Counted from the first letter of the stretch, positions 3,001 through 15,000 are shown. The stretch is 18,432 nucleotides of DNA from Candidatus Hydrogenedentota bacterium (GCA_046583315.1 JAYGCN010000054.1:1-18432), one strand, 5' to 3'. Numbers: made by a program.

Positions 3001-6000
3001 TCCGGATCGGCCCAATCCTGCTGCTCAAGTTCGGCTGTAGCCTCGGCAATCAACTCGACGAAATCTCTCTTAGTTTCCAACGGCATCACCTGCTGATTCC
3101 CGCACCATCGCTTGGCGAATATTTTTCCCATCGTTCGCCGCCGAGAACAGAATATGATTGAAGGATTCGAGCGCCGGATCGGATGCCGCATCGAGTCGTT
3201 GATAAATGAAAAGAAGCAACGGAATCGTATCGCCCTCCCCATCCACTTCACGATACGCAATATACGTAATTTTCCACCCGCTGCTCGTCTGCGCGACGCC
3301 CTTGTGAAAACGCGTATCATCGTTGGTGACCACGACCGTCGTTTTTACCGCTTTCGAAAGTCCCAGGGTCGAATCGTGCACCAATCGCTCTCCCAAATCC
3401 GCAATTGAATCGAATGCATCTTGCACCATTTTTGCAGCAACCTCAACCGAAGGCATGGTCTTCTCAGATGGAAGTCCCACCGAAAAAATAATCACTTGTG
3501 TTCTGTCACCTTCGTCGGCGGAGACCAGATCGATGGATGTCAAAAGCGTTTCGTCTTGCAAGCGGAAGCTATGGAAGCGCTGATCCATTGCCCGCGTAGA
3601 TTCTACTTGTTCATAACCGTCACTCAGAAGAATGGCCGCGTGATTCGAAATCGTCGCCGTTCCATCCCCCTCATCAGGCCTACGACCAATGCTAATGGCA
3701 AGATATCCAAATCCAACAATTATCAAGGTGATGACTGTTGCAATCTCAAAATACTTTTGGCGATTAATCGATTGTTGGTGGTCAGGGTCGCGAAGAATTT
3801 TCCCACTTTCATCGACAGCTGGCACCGCACCGCATTTTGCACACGGCCTCGGCTCGCCACTGAGAACGTCAAAGGTGAGCGCCTCGCCGCAGGAGGGACA
3901 TTGAATGCTGTTCACGATGGTGGAGACTCCTCTGGAGGTTGCGATTCAGATTGAAACTGACCGACCATGTCGCTGGAAGTGTCCACCTGCAATTCAAGCA
4001 TACAGGTTTGATTGTCGGCTCGTGTACCCGATATTTTCACGCGAAACACGTATTCATCGATGGGCTGAGGGGATTCAACGCCAATTTTCGTCAGATACGC
4101 CTCACTTTTAGCGTATTTCAACGCGAGAATACTCGCCCGCTGTGAGCGCTTTCGTTCTTCTTCGCGCTCTTCTTTGGATTTCGGTGGTAAATCCATCAGA
4201 AGCGTACGCAGAAAACCGCGACGACTGGCTTGGCTATTCCTCGGTTTTTTGGGCATTTTACGGCCAATTAGGGGTGTGTTTCGGCTCGGCTACTGACGTT
4301 CTCATGAACGTCCTACATCAATTCTATATTCCTGAGACCCAATTTACCAGAAAATTAAGGGGTTTTCGTCAATTTTGAGACGTTTTAGCATATAATGGGG
4401 TTTATTCCAGTAATGAATAGGGGCCTCAGTCGGGTCAAACGCCTGTTTTGATTGCGGAACACGGATCTAGGTAGAATTAACGGGCTTAACGTAAGGTTTT
4501 CTGTCTAAGAAATAAAGGTTGTTGTCGCGCTATGAATCTCAGAGCCGAATTCGACGCGCTTGACGAAAATCGCATGGCCAGCTATGTTACGTCGGTCATA
4601 CTACTCGTCGTGTGCACAGTAGCTTCCATCGGGTCCCTCTACATGTGGTTGGACTACGATCCCACTCGTCTGCTCGAAGCCGAAATTCCTGGCTACGACA
4701 GCCTACCACCGGGTGCCGCAAGCAGTGCCACCAAAGCAGACCTGACCGGCGTATTCGAAGCCATGGAAGGTCAGCCTTCCGACTTACCCGGCAACTGGCC
4801 CAGTTTCCGCGGTCCCTCCTTCGACAACATCAGCGCAGATGCTCCCACACTCGCAACATCTTGGCCTGCCAACGGCCCCGAAATTTTATGGTCCGTCGAT
4901 ATCGGTAACGGGTATGCAGCACCTTCAGTGTTGAACGGAATCGTCTACCTGATGGATTACGACGAAGAGGATCGCAAAGATCTCTTGCGCGCGTTTTCGT
5001 TGGAAGACGGATCGGAAATTTGGCGACGCTCCTACAAAGTTATGGTGAAACGAAATCATGGCATGTCCCGGACCATTCCCGCTGTGACTGAAAGCACCAT
5101 CGTCACGATAGGCCCCAAATGTCACGTCGTCTGTCTCGACACGGCGACCGGCGATTTCAAATGGGGCATCGATCTGCAATCCGACTACGGCACGGTTGAA
5201 CCGCTGTGGTACGCCGCGCAATGTCCGCTCATCGAAGATGGAAAAGTCTTACTCGCGCCATGCGGTACCGACGTACTGATGATGGCAGTCGACTGCGATA
5301 CGGGTGAGGTGCAATGGACGACTCCCAATCCACGCAAGTGGGACATGTCGCATGCCTCCATCATTCCTATGACGATTCTCGGCAAGAAAATGTATGTCTA
5401 CGCCGCACTGGGAGGCATTCTGGCCGTGTCTGCAGAAGAAGATGATATCGGTTCGATACTCTGGGAGATTCACTGGGTCGCCAAAGTTGTCGCCCCCTCG
5501 CCGGTACCAGTCGGCGACGATCACATTCTCATAACGGCAGGCTACGGCACCGGAAACATGATGTTAAAGATTGTCGAATCTGGCGGGACGTATTCCGCAG
5601 AAGTCGAATATGCCCACGCGCCAGGTGATGGCCTCTCCTGTGAACAACAAACACCCATCTACAGCGACGGGCTTCTCTACGGCATCATGCCCAAAGATGC
5701 CGGATCGCTGAAGGGTCAATTCGTTGCCTACAATCCAGACGGCAGCCTTAACTGGTCCAGCGGCAGCGACAACCGATTCGGCTTCGGCCCCTTCCTGAAA
5801 GCCGACAATAAATTTTACATCCTCGACGATCACGGCGTGTTGACCATGCTCGAAGCGAGCACGAGCGGTTACAAGCAATTGGGTCAGGCCGAAGTCCTGC
5901 ACGGACACGACCCCTGGGGGCCCATCGCACTCGCGGGTTCACGAATGTTGTTACGCGATATGGATAATCTTATCTGCGTGGAAATAGGGGCTTAGACGAT

Positions 6001-12000: not shown

Positions 12001-15000
12001 TACGTCATCTGCAACGGGGACGAAGGCGACCCCGGCGCATTCATGGACCGCATGATTCTTGAGTCGTACTCTTATCGCGTGATTGAAGGCATGGCGATCA
12101 GCGCATTGGCTGTCGACTCAGATGAAGGCATCCTGTACATCCGCGCCGAATACCCCCTCGCCACGAAACGCCTTCGTCAGGCCATCCTCGATTGCGAAGA
12201 AGCCGGCATCATCGGCGACGACATATTGGGCAGCGGAAAATCATTCCACCTTCGCGTAAAAGAAGGCGCCGGAGCATTCGTGTGTGGCGAAGAGACTGCC
12301 TTGATCGCGTCCCTCGAAGGAAAACGTGGAATGCCCACCATACGGCCACCATTCCCGGCCATCAAAGGCCTCTGGGGTAAACCCACCCTCATCAACAATA
12401 CCGAAACCGTCGCGATGGTGCCCTGGATCATACGCAATGGCGCAGAAAAGTTTGCCGAACTGGGGACCGAACGCAGTAAAGGCACCAAAGTATTCTCCTT
12501 GGCTGGCAAGATTCGTCACGGCGGCCTGATCGAAGTGCCCATGGGCATCACCATCAACGAAATCGTCGAAGACATCGGCGGTGGCATCGCGGACGGACAC
12601 ACCTTCAAAGCCATGCTCGTCGGCGGGCCTTCCGGCGGCTGTATCCCCGCGTCACTCGGCCATACGCCTGTGGACTACGAAGCCCTCTCCGAAATCGGCG
12701 CCATGATGGGTTCGGGCGGACTCATCGTGTTGGACGATACCGACTGCATCGTCGAGATGTGTCGCTACTTCCTCTCCTTTACCCAGGAAGAATCCTGCGG
12801 AAAATGTACGCCCTGCCGTATCGGTACCATGCGCATGAAAGAAATGCTCGAACGCCTCTGCAACGGCAAAGGCAAGTTAAGCGATCTTGAACTGCTGGAC
12901 GAGCTCGGGCAGGTCGTCAAAAATCAAAGTCTCTGTGGCCTCGGAAAAACCGCCCCGAACCCCGTGCTGACCGCCCTCAAATACTTCAAAGAAGAATTCA
13001 TCGCACACGTCAACGGAAAATGCCCGGCGGGAAAATGCAAACCCCTGATCGATTACTGGATCATCGATACCTGCATCGGCTGTACGAAATGCGAACAGGT
13101 CTGCCCGATTGACGATTGCATCGATTCTACGCCATTCAAATTCCACACCATCAATTTGGATACCTGTACCCGTTGCGACGCGTGCCTCCCGGTATGCCCG
13201 ACCAACGCCATAATCGCGGGCTCACGCGATCCCGAAGAAGTAAAACAAGCTGAGGAAGCACTGGTTTGATCAAGCTAAAAATAAATAATAAGGAAATCGA
13301 GGTCGAAGGAGGTACCACCCTAATTCATGTCGCGCGCGACATGGGCATCGAAGTCCCTACCCTGTGTTACTGGGAAGGCGTGAAACCCATGAACTCGTGC
13401 ATGTTGTGCGTGATGCGCGATTCCAACACAGGCATCTTGCACCCCTCCTGCTCCACCATGGTCCAGGAAGGCATGGACATCGAGACCGACAGCGGCGATG
13501 TATGTGAAGCGCGCAAAGACGTGCTCGAACTCACCATCAGTGAACACGTCGGCGATTGCGAAGCCCCCTGTACCCATACCTGTCCGGCTTCCATGAATAT
13601 CCCCGTGATGATGCGCCAGATTTACGAAGGCGATCTCGATGCCGCGGCGTATACCGTTACCAACGGTCTCGTATTCCCCGGCACCCTCGGATACGTATGC
13701 CCCGCGCCCTGCGAGAGCCCATGTCGTCGCAAAGGCTACGACGAAACCATGAAAATAAAGCGACTGCACCGCGAAGTCTCCGAAAAAGCGCTAAAGGATA
13801 ATCCCGAATTGCTCGACTGCCCCGAAGATTCCGGAAAACACGTCTCCATCATAGGCGGCGGACTCACTGGCATGGCCTCGGCCTGGGTATTGCGCAAACA
13901 CGGCCACGCAGTCACCATCTACGAAAAAGAAGCCAAGGCCGGCGGAAAAGTCCGCAACCTCACCGAAGAAGAACTGCCCAAAGAAGTACTCGACGCCGAA
14001 ATCGATTTCATTCGTCAGCTGGGTGTCACCTTCGAATACAATCGCGAAATAAACGGCAACGGCGACCTCGAAGCCATCATGGCAAATTCCGACAGTGTGA
14101 TCGTTGCCTGCAAGGAAGTCGCCAAACCCGGTGGAAAAATCTTTGAAGCCAAGGAACACAAACTCGACGTGCGCGCTGTCGGTAATGGCAAAACCACCGC
14201 CACCTGGGTCGACAAATACCTCAAAAGCGTCGAGCCGACACCCGATCCCAAACTTTTCGATTCCAAATACGGCAAACTCGACAAGTCAAATCTCAGCCGT
14301 CTGCTTGAGAACAAGACAGCCATGACGATCCCCAAAATTGAAGGCGAACTCGTCGATGCACGCGCCGAAGCAGGACGCTGCCTGCACTGCGATTGCCGCA
14401 AGCGGGTCAGTTGTGGCCTACGCAAGTATGCTTCGGACTACGGTGCCCAGAAAAAGAAATACTTCGCCTCCGAAACACCCGACGTGCGCATTCTCGGCAG
14501 TGGAAACGTTATTCTGGAACCCGGAAAGTGTATTCGCTGCGGGCTGTGCGTCGCCATCGCCGAAAAACACGGCGAAGACATCGGACTCACCTTCGCCAAT
14601 CGCGGCTTCGACATGGAAATTCGCGTTCCCTTCGACCACAGCTTCGATGACGCACTGAAAAAGTCGGCATCCGAATGCGTGGAGGCCTGCCCCACGGCAG
14701 CAATTGCGTTCCGAAATGTGGAAGACGTTCACGGCTGCCACACCTCAACACAAATCAAGTTGGTACGCCCCGTTCCAACATCACCGACGTCATAATAAAC
14801 TTACATACAATAGAAAGCAGTAAACATGAAACGTAAAGCTGGTTTTACCCTCATCGAACTACTCGTTGTCATCGCCATCATTGGAATTCTCGCGGCAATT
14901 CTTCTGCCCGCACTTTCCCGTGCCCGCGAGGCCACGCGCCGGGCATCCTGCGCCAACAACCTCAAGCAACTCGGCTTGTCATTGAAAATGTACGCCAACG

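Follow-up and report, generated by a model that had tools for sequence, protein, structure and literature searches.

To our knowledge, every Bfu enzyme characterised so far is cytoplasmic. The family is defined by a BfuB subunit with an FMN/NADH domain, an SLBB domain, the 4Fe-4S cluster B1 and a C-terminal ferredoxin domain holding clusters B3 and B4, and by a BfuC subunit with cluster C1; where BfuA lacks a catalytic domain, extra subunits feed it in the scheme of Schut and colleagues, and the predicted membrane Bfu enzymes use hydrogenase or complex I arms (PMC9304861). NapH-like proteins have been proposed as transmembrane electron modules (PMC8238504), and doubts about their role as quinol dehydrogenases have led to reductive maturation being suggested instead (PMC6195509).

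In the 18,432 nucleotides of Candidatus Hydrogenedentota DNA analysed here (the window), eight abutting plus-strand genes, g980 to g987, span 4532-14795 with all ORFs in place, and a further propeller gene lies at the contig end:

4532..5995, plus strand: g980, N-terminally anchored PQQ_2/BamB-type beta-propeller, 487 aa
5999..7000, plus strand: g981, anchored six-bladed NHL propeller, 333 aa
6984..7178, plus strand: g982, 64-aa peptide with a twin-arginine-like motif (here R-H) and the pattern C-x5-C-x2-C-x5-C
7178..7738, plus strand: g983, Tat-exported polyferredoxin, 186 aa, with a TAT_signal match
7735..9030, plus strand: g984, NapH/NosR-family membrane protein, probable signal peptide and seven TM helices
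9030..10781, plus strand: g985, three TM helices followed by a PQQ_2 propeller, 583 aa
10774..13269, plus strand: g986, fused BfuC-BfuB (NuoE-NuoF-like), 831 aa
13266..14795, plus strand: g987, truncated BfuA/NfnA with an FAD Rossmann remnant, 509 aa
17328..18432, minus strand: propeller, 5'-truncated at the contig end, whose orthologue in the same-genus genome G037 is divergent from propeller-GT4-propeller genes

The likeliest starts are 4532, 5999, 6984, 7178, 7735, 9030, 10774 and 13266 (TTG), and the junctions from g980 to g987 measure +3, -17, -1, -4, -1, -8 and -4 bases, which is what translational coupling, claimed in the survey's finding, would predict. That finding counted seven genes; its operon stands as to ORFs, place, strand and junctions, and its Pfam/NCBIfam domain list was reproduced, but the gene number becomes eight because g982-like four-Cys ORFs, found in several phyla, closely precede g983 in 37 of 74 loci. 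Promoter and terminator scans did no better than shuffles. A literature search, with subscription papers mostly outside its scope, found no description of such an operon. Our reading, for which the chances appear about even, is that the genes form one functional system exporting reducing power across the inner membrane.

Gene order is colinear across many phyla in GTDB loci, at least 584 candidate stretches encode a relative (584 of 599 among the matches listed), and cultured hosts such as Ancylomarina euxinus (locus L104) have the system. Counted in the 80 best GTDB loci wherever flanking DNA sufficed, g984 is present in 74/74, g980 in 64/67, g981 in 70/74 (moved or beyond the DNA covered in the four misses), g985 in 61/62, g986 in 52/53 and g987 in 45/47. 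An apparent g980-g981 fusion (L045) is an artefact of a run of N that joins both frames, and a 774-aa ORF (L105) is an upstream extension only. Within the phylum g983 occurs in 76 of 135 genomes; g987 and g983 are both present in 70 and both missing from 57, with g987 alone in two (each 84% complete) and g983 alone in six, counts that overstate the association as related genomes are not independent. The phylum and GTDB counts bear out the survey's proposal that a Bfu core is strictly coupled, in genetic terms, to a Tat ferredoxin and a membrane protein of the NapH family.

The only PF01512 protein of the genome, g986 fits the Bfu definition for a fused BfuBC in its Pfam domains and ligands, and its closest structures are NfnB (9n5u, 9bov) and StnB (8oh5). 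It carries the FMN/NADH site, and the ligands of C1, B1, B2, B3 and B4 are invariant in 52 of 52 sequences. The AFM and GGPSG motifs, each present in 52/52, are said by Losey et al. to mark bifurcating beta subunits. The B2 site is Cys3His (C658, H745, C750 and C755, all 52/52), with a His that is missing from non-bifurcating homologues (PMC9304861). For B5, which can be a Zn site with three Cys, C193 and C223 are found in 52/52 and C192 and C227 in 43/52. All bifurcation-associated ligands are thus kept, and the Bfu-type core holds, with bifurcation itself expected from family membership. A reading of g986 and g987 as a complex I input module was rejected, the genome (96.7% complete) having no NuoD.

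Next in the operon, g987 keeps A1, A2, A3, A6 and A7, the last with His168 instead of Lys as fourth ligand, and is without A4, A5 and the Fdh-like domain. The NADP(H) domain is deleted at about 14112-14136, where some 190 NfnA residues are gone, the alignment to Csac NfnA covering residues 4-285 and 478-671 only. This domain is likewise missing from 44 of 45 complete orthologues and from all 18 complete phylum copies (the sets overlap): the two FAD-domain strands are 14-40 residues apart in the window and in 44 loci, versus 184 in L113, the only one of 45 loci with GGGNTAMD. An FAD-contact Asp is kept in 1 of 45 rows and an Arg equivalent to R239 in 3 of 45 (Glu in the window), while the fourth A7 ligand is Lys in 19, His in 17-18 and something else in the remainder of 45-46 rows. 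With the second Rossmann fold deleted, and neither a Cys3-Lys A7 nor Arg239 in the window, g987 is, judged by its sequence, not a working NfnA/StnC, and because the NADP(H) domain has been cut out the system is no transhydrogenase; the survey's 'NAD(P)H module of Stn/NfnABC type' falls with it. The domain may have been lost by a single deletion. A quick unrooted tree of 42 rows, 8 near-duplicate or broken ones being left out, puts three full-length rows on one side of one branch (SH-aLRT 97).

A soluble NfnABC/Stn transhydrogenase that happens to share an operon with an unrelated membrane module has accordingly become very improbable and is largely refuted. NADPH in StnC sits between two Rossmann folds (PMC10482914), the second of which is lost here, and the joint presence and absence across the phylum also opposes such a juxtaposition, even though NfnABC/StnABC are the closest structures. 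Two cases favour it and count against our main reading: L113 holds a full-length subunit, NADP(H) domain included, within the operon, and in the singleton P0122 the truncated subunit is joined to a whole GltD-like module. In some lineages NADPH could therefore come in trans. A g987-propeller fusion (P0176) was set aside as evidence, being a singleton that keeps the propeller signal peptide and has probably lost a stop codon.

Erosion goes further in a g987 subfamily of at least 25 full-length proteins (333-359 aa, among 120 matches listed) that has shed the FAD domain: GxGxxG is found in 0/25, yet the A1, A2, A3 and A6 ligands are kept in 25/25 and the A7 Cys in 24/25 of the matches listed, and two such copies sit within a full operon (L164, L165). 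It might be argued, though we think it distinctly unlikely, that there is no bifurcation, NADH alone feeding a path in which the ferredoxin-like domain of g984 serves as tethered acceptor at B3/B4 of g986 and g987 is a structural remnant. The stepwise loss of the NADP(H) domain, the FAD contacts, the entire FAD domain and, in L164, A7 would suit this, as would the dead-end clusters that StnC keeps for assembly (PMC10482914). Against it, the A1, A2, A3 and A6 ligands are invariant in those listed matches even when the FAD domain is gone, and the clusters lost, A4 and A5, are the known dead ends. On the reading of one exporting system, g987 has no third-substrate site of its own and its wire needs a protein partner, which argues for one complex; g984 is the only candidate within the operon.

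This membrane protein has two CxxxCP motifs and a split 2x[4Fe-4S] domain on the cytoplasmic side and invariant C96, C98 and C192 on the outer side; 15 of 15 Cys are invariant in 26 sequences, and the TM helices show no conserved heme-type His pair. It belongs to the NapH-like superfamily by PF12801 (56 bits, cut-off 22), TM topology and cytoplasmic 4Fe-4S motifs, and falls below the NapH/MauN cut-off (TIGR02163, 44.9 versus 213 bits). The eight TM helices once assigned to it are better taken as a probable signal peptide and seven. Its model (pLDDT 79) has no solved relative: Foldseek gave none at E<=0.001, and the best Z in a VIA fold search, 6.3, fell on a helical hairpin. Comparison of the periplasmic hairpins of g984 and g985 found no homology.

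Just upstream, g983 has 17 invariant Cys in a 15-sequence alignment, with room for four [4Fe-4S]; the Tat signal of the earlier description is confirmed, its count of 16 Cys is not. With TIGR00397 at 19.1 versus 179 bits it is NapG-like in role only, and its profile matched nothing in the PDB at 1e-8. From its four-Cys pattern g982 is probably a small exported Fe-S or metal carrier.

The membrane genes could also be a NapGH-type quinol dehydrogenase (g983-g984) serving the propellers, with the Bfu module reducing menaquinone through g984 or otherwise and the pool linking the halves. The potentials, -74 mV for menaquinone, -280 mV for NAD and -500 mV for ferredoxin (PMC9304861), exclude a quinone pool driving bifurcation, as had been suggested, and leave only NADH plus reduced ferredoxin to quinone as feasible. 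The genome makes menaquinone, which renders such a relay conceivable; we nonetheless consider it unlikely. Both proteins are far under the NapH and NapG cut-offs (45/213 and 19/179 bits), g984 has the three additional invariant outer-face Cys, no menaquinone gene exceeds cut-off in two incomplete genomes (G135, G138), and spending NADH and ferredoxin on menaquinone without pumping subunits would waste energy. PF01040 was dropped as a marker of quinone makers, being positive in 14/14 controls.

Among the propellers, g981 has vicinal cysteines in a GCCNP motif (C248-C249, codon at 6740; C248 in 74/74, C249 in 72/74) together with invariant E266/K267/R271, at odds with the view that the propellers are without obvious ligands. 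Its model (pLDDT 91) has an NHL fold and matched NHL propellers only, and its sequence makes it the best candidate for a periplasmic end point of the electron path. In g980 K173, H176, R180 and H274 are each conserved in 65/65 sequences of the alignment, and the conserved polar loop motifs KRNHG, MSH, EQQTP and PKD suggest a ligand site. The g985 propeller is most likely periplasmic, given the odd TM number and the skew in mean K+R (3.1 and 2.9 in the TM2-TM3 loop, 1.2 after TM3; 62 sequences). Electrons could instead flow inward, from propellers acting as periplasmic dehydrogenases (e.g. of aldoses or aldehydes), with bifurcation then passing them to NAD+ and ferredoxin in the manner of Wor-Bfu. 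The folds are PQQ-like, the window's genome has pqqC, NapH-like proteins are found with the alcohol oxidase ExaA (PMC8238504) and Bfu reactions are reversible (PMC9304861). This is nevertheless highly unlikely: the propellers match BamB in size and score far too low for quinoproteins (TIGR03075, 20-43 bits versus 480), pqqC occurs in only 5 of 76 system-positive genomes, although PQQ may be taken up from outside, the membrane potential opposes inward transfer, and the GT4 and ABC transporter described below are left unexplained.

The operon is only part of a larger, export-directed system as we see it. A GT4 glycosyltransferase, more propellers and an FtsX-type ABC permease track it: across the 135 phylum genomes GT4 is shared by 74 of the 76 system-positive ones, with 2 + 2 discordant and 57 having neither, the permease by 72, with 1 + 4 discordant, and both also occur in 5/5 hosts from other phyla in which GT4 is not adjacent. 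In the window's genome this second half is on contig C185:1-7677, which, from the arrangement in G037, probably lies just beyond the window. Counting against our reading, 19 of 33 GT4-positive planctomycete genomes sampled have the GT4-propeller-ABC module without the redox chain, and G108 and G109 have a second g986-g987 copy beside GT4-ABC with no membrane genes in the locus. A terpenoid set (ferredoxin, radical SAM, DUF116-polyprenyl synthase, prenyltransferase, SHC-like) was judged accessory, not core; the synthase occurs in 14 of the 135 genomes, each of them system-positive, and is absent from this one.

In the proposed mechanism g986 would accept two inputs, NADH at FMN and reduced ferredoxin at B3/B4, and, as Bfu membership suggests, merge their electrons (confurcation, about -390 mV) into the g987 wire A1-A2-A3-A6-A7. 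With the NADP(H) domain lost, as is the FAD domain in one subfamily, this wire would end on an exposed cluster that could dock on the cytoplasmic 2x[4Fe-4S] of g984. A heme-free path would then run through the CxxxCP sites and the outer Cys triad to g983 and g982, helped outward by the membrane potential, and end on the anchored propellers, most likely at the g981 Cys pair. There the electrons would serve not respiration but a reductive envelope step, in which a glycosylated lipid or cofactor is made or matured, in a pathway also using GT4, further propellers and an FtsX/MacB-type ABC transporter. The reduced ferredoxin supply is uncertain, given five heme-copper oxidase subunits I and one POR_N match in the genome. 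More tentative is the full proposal: a quinone-free, heme-free Fe-S wire (BfuA, NapH-like protein, Tat polyferredoxin) that with the membrane potential might bring electrons of about -500 mV to a vicinal-cysteine propeller enzyme for a low-potential step in the synthesis of a glycosylated envelope lipid, or of a redox cofactor, not described before, in Hydrogenedentota, Bacteroidota, PVC and other sediment lineages.

Low-potential electrons would gain a new way into the periplasm through a Bfu core that has shed its A-subunit substrate site and is passed on together with exported ferredoxins and a NapH-family protein; the wide spread and cultured hosts mean that such a system can be tested. 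The tie to GT4, propellers and ABC transporter points to an undescribed envelope product, and to a function for the abundant 'PQQ-like' propellers of genomes that do not make PQQ. With NfnABC/StnABC (Nfn-Bfu; 9bov, 9n5u, 8oh5) it shares the BfuB and BfuC cofactor set and a BfuA scaffold with A1, A2, A3, A6 and A7 in the same inserted arrangement. It differs in that BfuC is fused to BfuB, BfuA is without the NADP(H) domain, A4, A5 and the Fdh-like domain, the fourth A7 ligand varies, the FAD domain is dispensable in a subfamily, and membrane and exported subunits are co-encoded. It is not the first membrane-integral member, as had been claimed, since Mbh-Bfu and Nuo-Bfu, with a BfuABC core likewise co-encoded with membrane subunits for a third reaction, were predicted earlier (Schut et al. 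2022, PMC9304861). Unlike them it has no antiporter-like pumping, NiFe or quinone-reducing NuoD subunit, their place being taken by a NapH-family protein together with periplasmic propellers and a Tat polyferredoxin; the main text of that paper contains none of the words 'periplasm', 'NapG', 'PQQ' and 'propeller'. MsrQ-like systems with a NuoF-like donor also lead from a cytoplasmic NADH module to an extracytosolic path (31 clusters), using a diheme membrane protein and flavinylated carriers (PMC8238504), whereas here Fe-S clusters alone seem to make up the path and no bifurcation ligand is missing from the donor module. With NapGH, NosGH, NosR and PceC the likeness is in the two CxxxCP motifs and cytoplasmic 2x[4Fe-4S], beside a Tat-exported four-cluster ferredoxin. 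The contrasts are scores under the family cut-offs, a signal peptide with seven TM helices, a ferredoxin domain split by a TM hairpin, the added outer-face Cys triad, the absence nearby of an FMN-binding domain or of a reductase for nitrate, N2O or organohalides, and a co-encoded cytoplasmic NADH/ferredoxin module. The comparison bears on whether NapH/NosR/PceC-type proteins are quinol dehydrogenases, as has been doubted (PMC6195509), or wires from cytoplasmic donors, and a wire of the kind proposed would, if true, show the purpose of the cytoplasmic clusters in the NapH family.

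Eight ORFs lie in one run at 4532-14795 on the + strand, with starts taken at 4532, 5999, 6984, 7178, 7735, 9030, 10774 and 13266 (the last a TTG) and junctions of +3 to -17 bases, and the domains that the survey's finding had listed for them agree with the Pfam and NCBIfam matches. A match to g983, the Tat polyferredoxin, is present in 76 of 135 genomes of the phylum. In a GTDB scan relatives are encoded in at least 584 of 599 candidate stretches, the best 80 loci being spread over Hydrogenedentota, Bacteroidota (including Ancylomarina euxinus), Kiritimatiellae, Verrucomicrobia, Lentisphaerae, Planctomycetota, KSB1, Latescibacterota, Aminicenantes and Firestonebacteria. 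Among those of the 80 that are long enough to judge, the neighbors of g983 are in place as follows: the NapH-family membrane protein g984 in 74/74, the propellers g981, g980 and g985 in 70/74, 64/67 and 61/62, and the flavoproteins g986 and g987 in 52/53 and 45/47. Though small, g982 (64 aa) is judged a real gene because 37 of 74 loci have a twin-arginine-like four-Cys ORF directly upstream of g983. Short inserted genes, of four-helix-bundle or GxxExxY type by eye, recur between operon genes (loci L113:9282-9815, L165:13800-14300 and L063:13587-14063).

By its alignments g986 is BfuC fused to BfuB of the bifurcating (Bfu) enzymes, its best solved relatives being NfnB and StnB (644, 635 and 610 bits), followed by FeFe-hydrogenase beta subunits. 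When 52 sequences are aligned (the window's and 51 complete orthologs above 750 bits), the ligands of cofactor sites C1, B1, B2 (C658, H745, C750, C755), B3 and B4 are invariant in 52/52, and at B5 two Cys are kept in 52/52 and two more in 43/52. Also invariant there are the AFM and GGPSG motifs, which are linked to bifurcation. The window's genome, G000, has no complex I: NuoD was looked for and none found, and there is one NuoF-like gene. With no NuoD, and g986 as the sole PF01512 protein, a role for g986 as complex I input module is ruled out. Its sequence agrees with the Bfu family definition of Schut et al. 2022 (PMC9304861). As two membrane-bound Bfu enzymes are already predicted there, the claim that this would be the first membrane-integral member fails; a keyword search of that paper's main text returned no mention of periplasm, NapG, PQQ or propellers.

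The A-type subunit, g987, aligns to residues 4-285 and 478-671 of C. saccharolyticus NfnA, and the approximately 190 residues between are absent. The absent segment corresponds to the Rossmann fold that binds NADP(H); NADPH sits between the two folds in StnC (PMC10482914). This deletion is found in 18 of the 18 complete copies from the phylum (20 loci fetched); of the complete GTDB copies 44 of 45 have it, some genomes being common to both sets. The linker left is 14-40 residues, and L113 alone is full-length, with 184 residues there. An Nfn-type NAD(P)H reading of the flavoprotein module, proposed earlier, does not survive it. The FAD GxGxxG is retained in the family (two glycines in 46/46), but the FAD-contact Asp, its position taken from PMC12018979, is kept in 1 of 45 rows and the residue equivalent to Arg239 in 3 of them; at the A7 lysine position Lys occurs in 19 and His in 17 of about 45. 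In two planctomycete operons the g987 versions, of 343 and 367 aa, are missing the entire FAD domain. With one of them as query, 25 full-length FAD-less proteins stand among the 120 matches listed, and among these the ligands of A1, A2, A3 and A6 are kept in 25/25 and the three A7 Cys in 24/25. The working wire of NfnABC is A7-A6-A3-A2-A1-B1 (PMC11829005), and the clusters lost from g987 are the off-path A4 and A5. The keeping of A1, A2, A3 and A6 together with the loss of A4, A5 and the nucleotide sites suggests that selection maintains the wire, not nucleotide binding. In P0163 (951 aa), from a cluster of 5 members, a URO-D/methyltransferase-like domain is joined to a truncated g987.

In the Bfu scheme an A subunit of such kind gets its electrons via extra subunits (PMC9304861), and g984 is the only co-encoded protein with predicted cytoplasmic Fe-S clusters. 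The case for one complex leans most on the need that the g987 wire would have for a partner, g984 being the sole candidate. Counting against one complex are L113 with its full-length A subunit, P0122, a singleton joining the g987 type to a complete GltD module, and second g986-g987 copies without membrane genes, beside a glycosyltransferase (GT4) and ABC genes:

L136:8449-12345, second g986-g987 copy beside GT4-ABC, genome G108
L138:7780-11783, second g986-g987 copy beside GT4-ABC, genome G109

At the G109 locus most of GT4 has been deleted, and both g986 and the permease gene are split. That the flavoproteins form a separate transhydrogenase has the deleted NADP(H) domain against it and is a very slim prospect.

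In g984 a probable signal peptide is followed by seven TM helices; K+R counts consistently place the two CxxxCP motifs and the two parts of a split 2x[4Fe-4S] domain on the inner side, with C96, C98 and C192 on the outer side. Across 26 sequences none of its 15 Cys varies, and heme b is unlikely since the conserved His are all located outside the TM helices. Fold and profile searches found no solved structural relative of g984 or g983. Published accounts treat NapGH as a quinol dehydrogenase whose NapH clusters face the cytoplasm (PMC5449189) and NapH-like proteins as modules that carry electrons through the membrane (PMC8238504), but the quinol role of NapH has been questioned and reductive maturation favored instead (PMC6195509). 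NapH reportedly anchors cytoplasmic NapF, to go by a paper title in the reference list of PMC6195509. G000 has menaquinone genes, so we allow a quinone relay a small but real chance. Wiring through a tethered ferredoxin with no bifurcation is decidedly doubtful. At 901-1881 (+) the window also encodes an MsrP/YedY-like molybdopterin oxidoreductase (PF00174) that carries a Tat signal; no MsrQ-like gene adjoins it in the window.

Three TM helices precede the g985 propeller, which most likely lies in the periplasm. A six-bladed NHL propeller is modeled for g981 (pLDDT 91), in whose GCCNP motif C248 is kept in 74/74 and C249 in 72/74, with D203, E266, K267 and R271 near-invariant; polar loop residues of g980, including K173, H176, R180 and H274, are kept in 65/65. 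PQQ chemistry is unlikely as a general feature, as pqqC occurs in only 6 of 135 genomes (five with a g983-type system, G000 included).

The system exceeds the operon first reported. ORF clustering of the 80 loci gives as recurring neighbors further propellers, GT4, in which there is a YCxNC motif, an ABC ATPase and an FtsX-type permease of 1087 aa, and G000 carries these GT4/propeller/ABC genes on another contig (C185:1-7677). In G037, of the same genus, one contig has the order g987 - prepilin - ArsG - ArsF - propeller / propeller - GT4 - propeller; because the broken ends of C185 and of the window's contig, C320, correspond to G037's two divergent propellers, the two contigs probably adjoin. 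Beyond g987 the window has:

14826-15764, + strand, prepilin-type N-methyl/DUF1559 protein, 30 bases 3′ of g987
15768-17008, - strand, ArsG-family (above cut-off) and ArsF-family genes, a CcdA/thioredoxin-like pair with CxxC
17079-17327, + strand, HTH_17 protein with a Cys-rich tail (MTCC...VCC...GCC)

The DUF1559 gene, from a large paralog family of the phylum, has the same place in G037 and some relatives, not in distant loci. The ArsF/ArsG pair, which in both G000 and G037 is inserted between the system's two halves, may be another small pair for exporting electrons, and the HTH_17 protein is perhaps its metal-sensing regulator.

GT4 and g983 agree in 131 of 135 genomes (74 both, 57 neither), and the permease and g987 agree with g983 in 130 and 127, the genomes being kin and not independent. 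GT4 and permease are present in 5 of 5 other-phylum hosts without adjacent GT4. Of 121 planctomycete genomes sampled, 33 have GT4, 16 have g983 and 14 have both; with many GT4 genomes there lacking g983, the tie to the redox chain is one-way. Of 18 GT4-only neighborhoods fetched, 12 keep a propeller and 10 the permease, and several adjoin HemN-like radical SAM, CoA-ligase-, halogenase- and dehydrogenase-like genes. Four planctomycete loci (L150, L151, L153, L155), where the redox chain is absent, combine GT4-propeller-ABC with HemN-like radical SAM, Fe-ADH, ALDH-like, PaaK-like ligase, halogenase-like and sodium:solute symporter genes in what looks like an undescribed biosynthetic cluster. A terpenoid gene set (counted by its synthase) is in 14 of the 135 genomes, all system-positive; it comprises genes for ferredoxin, radical SAM, DUF116-polyprenyl synthase, a prenyltransferase and a squalene-hopene-cyclase-like protein, and stands beside the operon in some lineages:

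L063:3-5666
L142:7230-13344
L143:8539-14805

The gene company looks biosynthetic, not respiratory.

The reading preferred here, to which we give an even chance, is that g986 would merge the electrons of NADH and reduced ferredoxin, that these would run along the g987 wire into g984, be carried by it across the membrane without heme to g983/g982 and arrive at the propellers, g981 first, for use in a reductive envelope step linked to GT4 and the ABC transporter. It builds on the cofactor ligands, the lost NADP(H) site, the cues to topology and the shared inheritance, and supposes contact among the proteins, an outward direction, bifurcation and a substrate for that step. Inward flow is a little less probable again than the tethered ferredoxin. 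Quinol-driven bifurcation, an option in the survey's finding, is at odds with the potentials tabulated in PMC9304861. G000 has one NqrB/RnfD-type gene, one POR_N match and five heme-copper oxidase subunits I, so the system is not limited to strict anaerobes.

A literature search excluding subscription papers and bioRxiv supplements found no description of the operon; unassigned clades 1-17 of PMC9304861, whose supplement text names no such host, could hold members unnamed. By test the system is a Bfu variant that is neither NfnABC nor NapGH: in contrast to NfnABC, g987 is without the NADP(H) domain, A4 and A5, and in contrast to NapGH, g984, a member of the PF12801 superfamily, scores far under the NapH cut-off and g983 under that for NapG.
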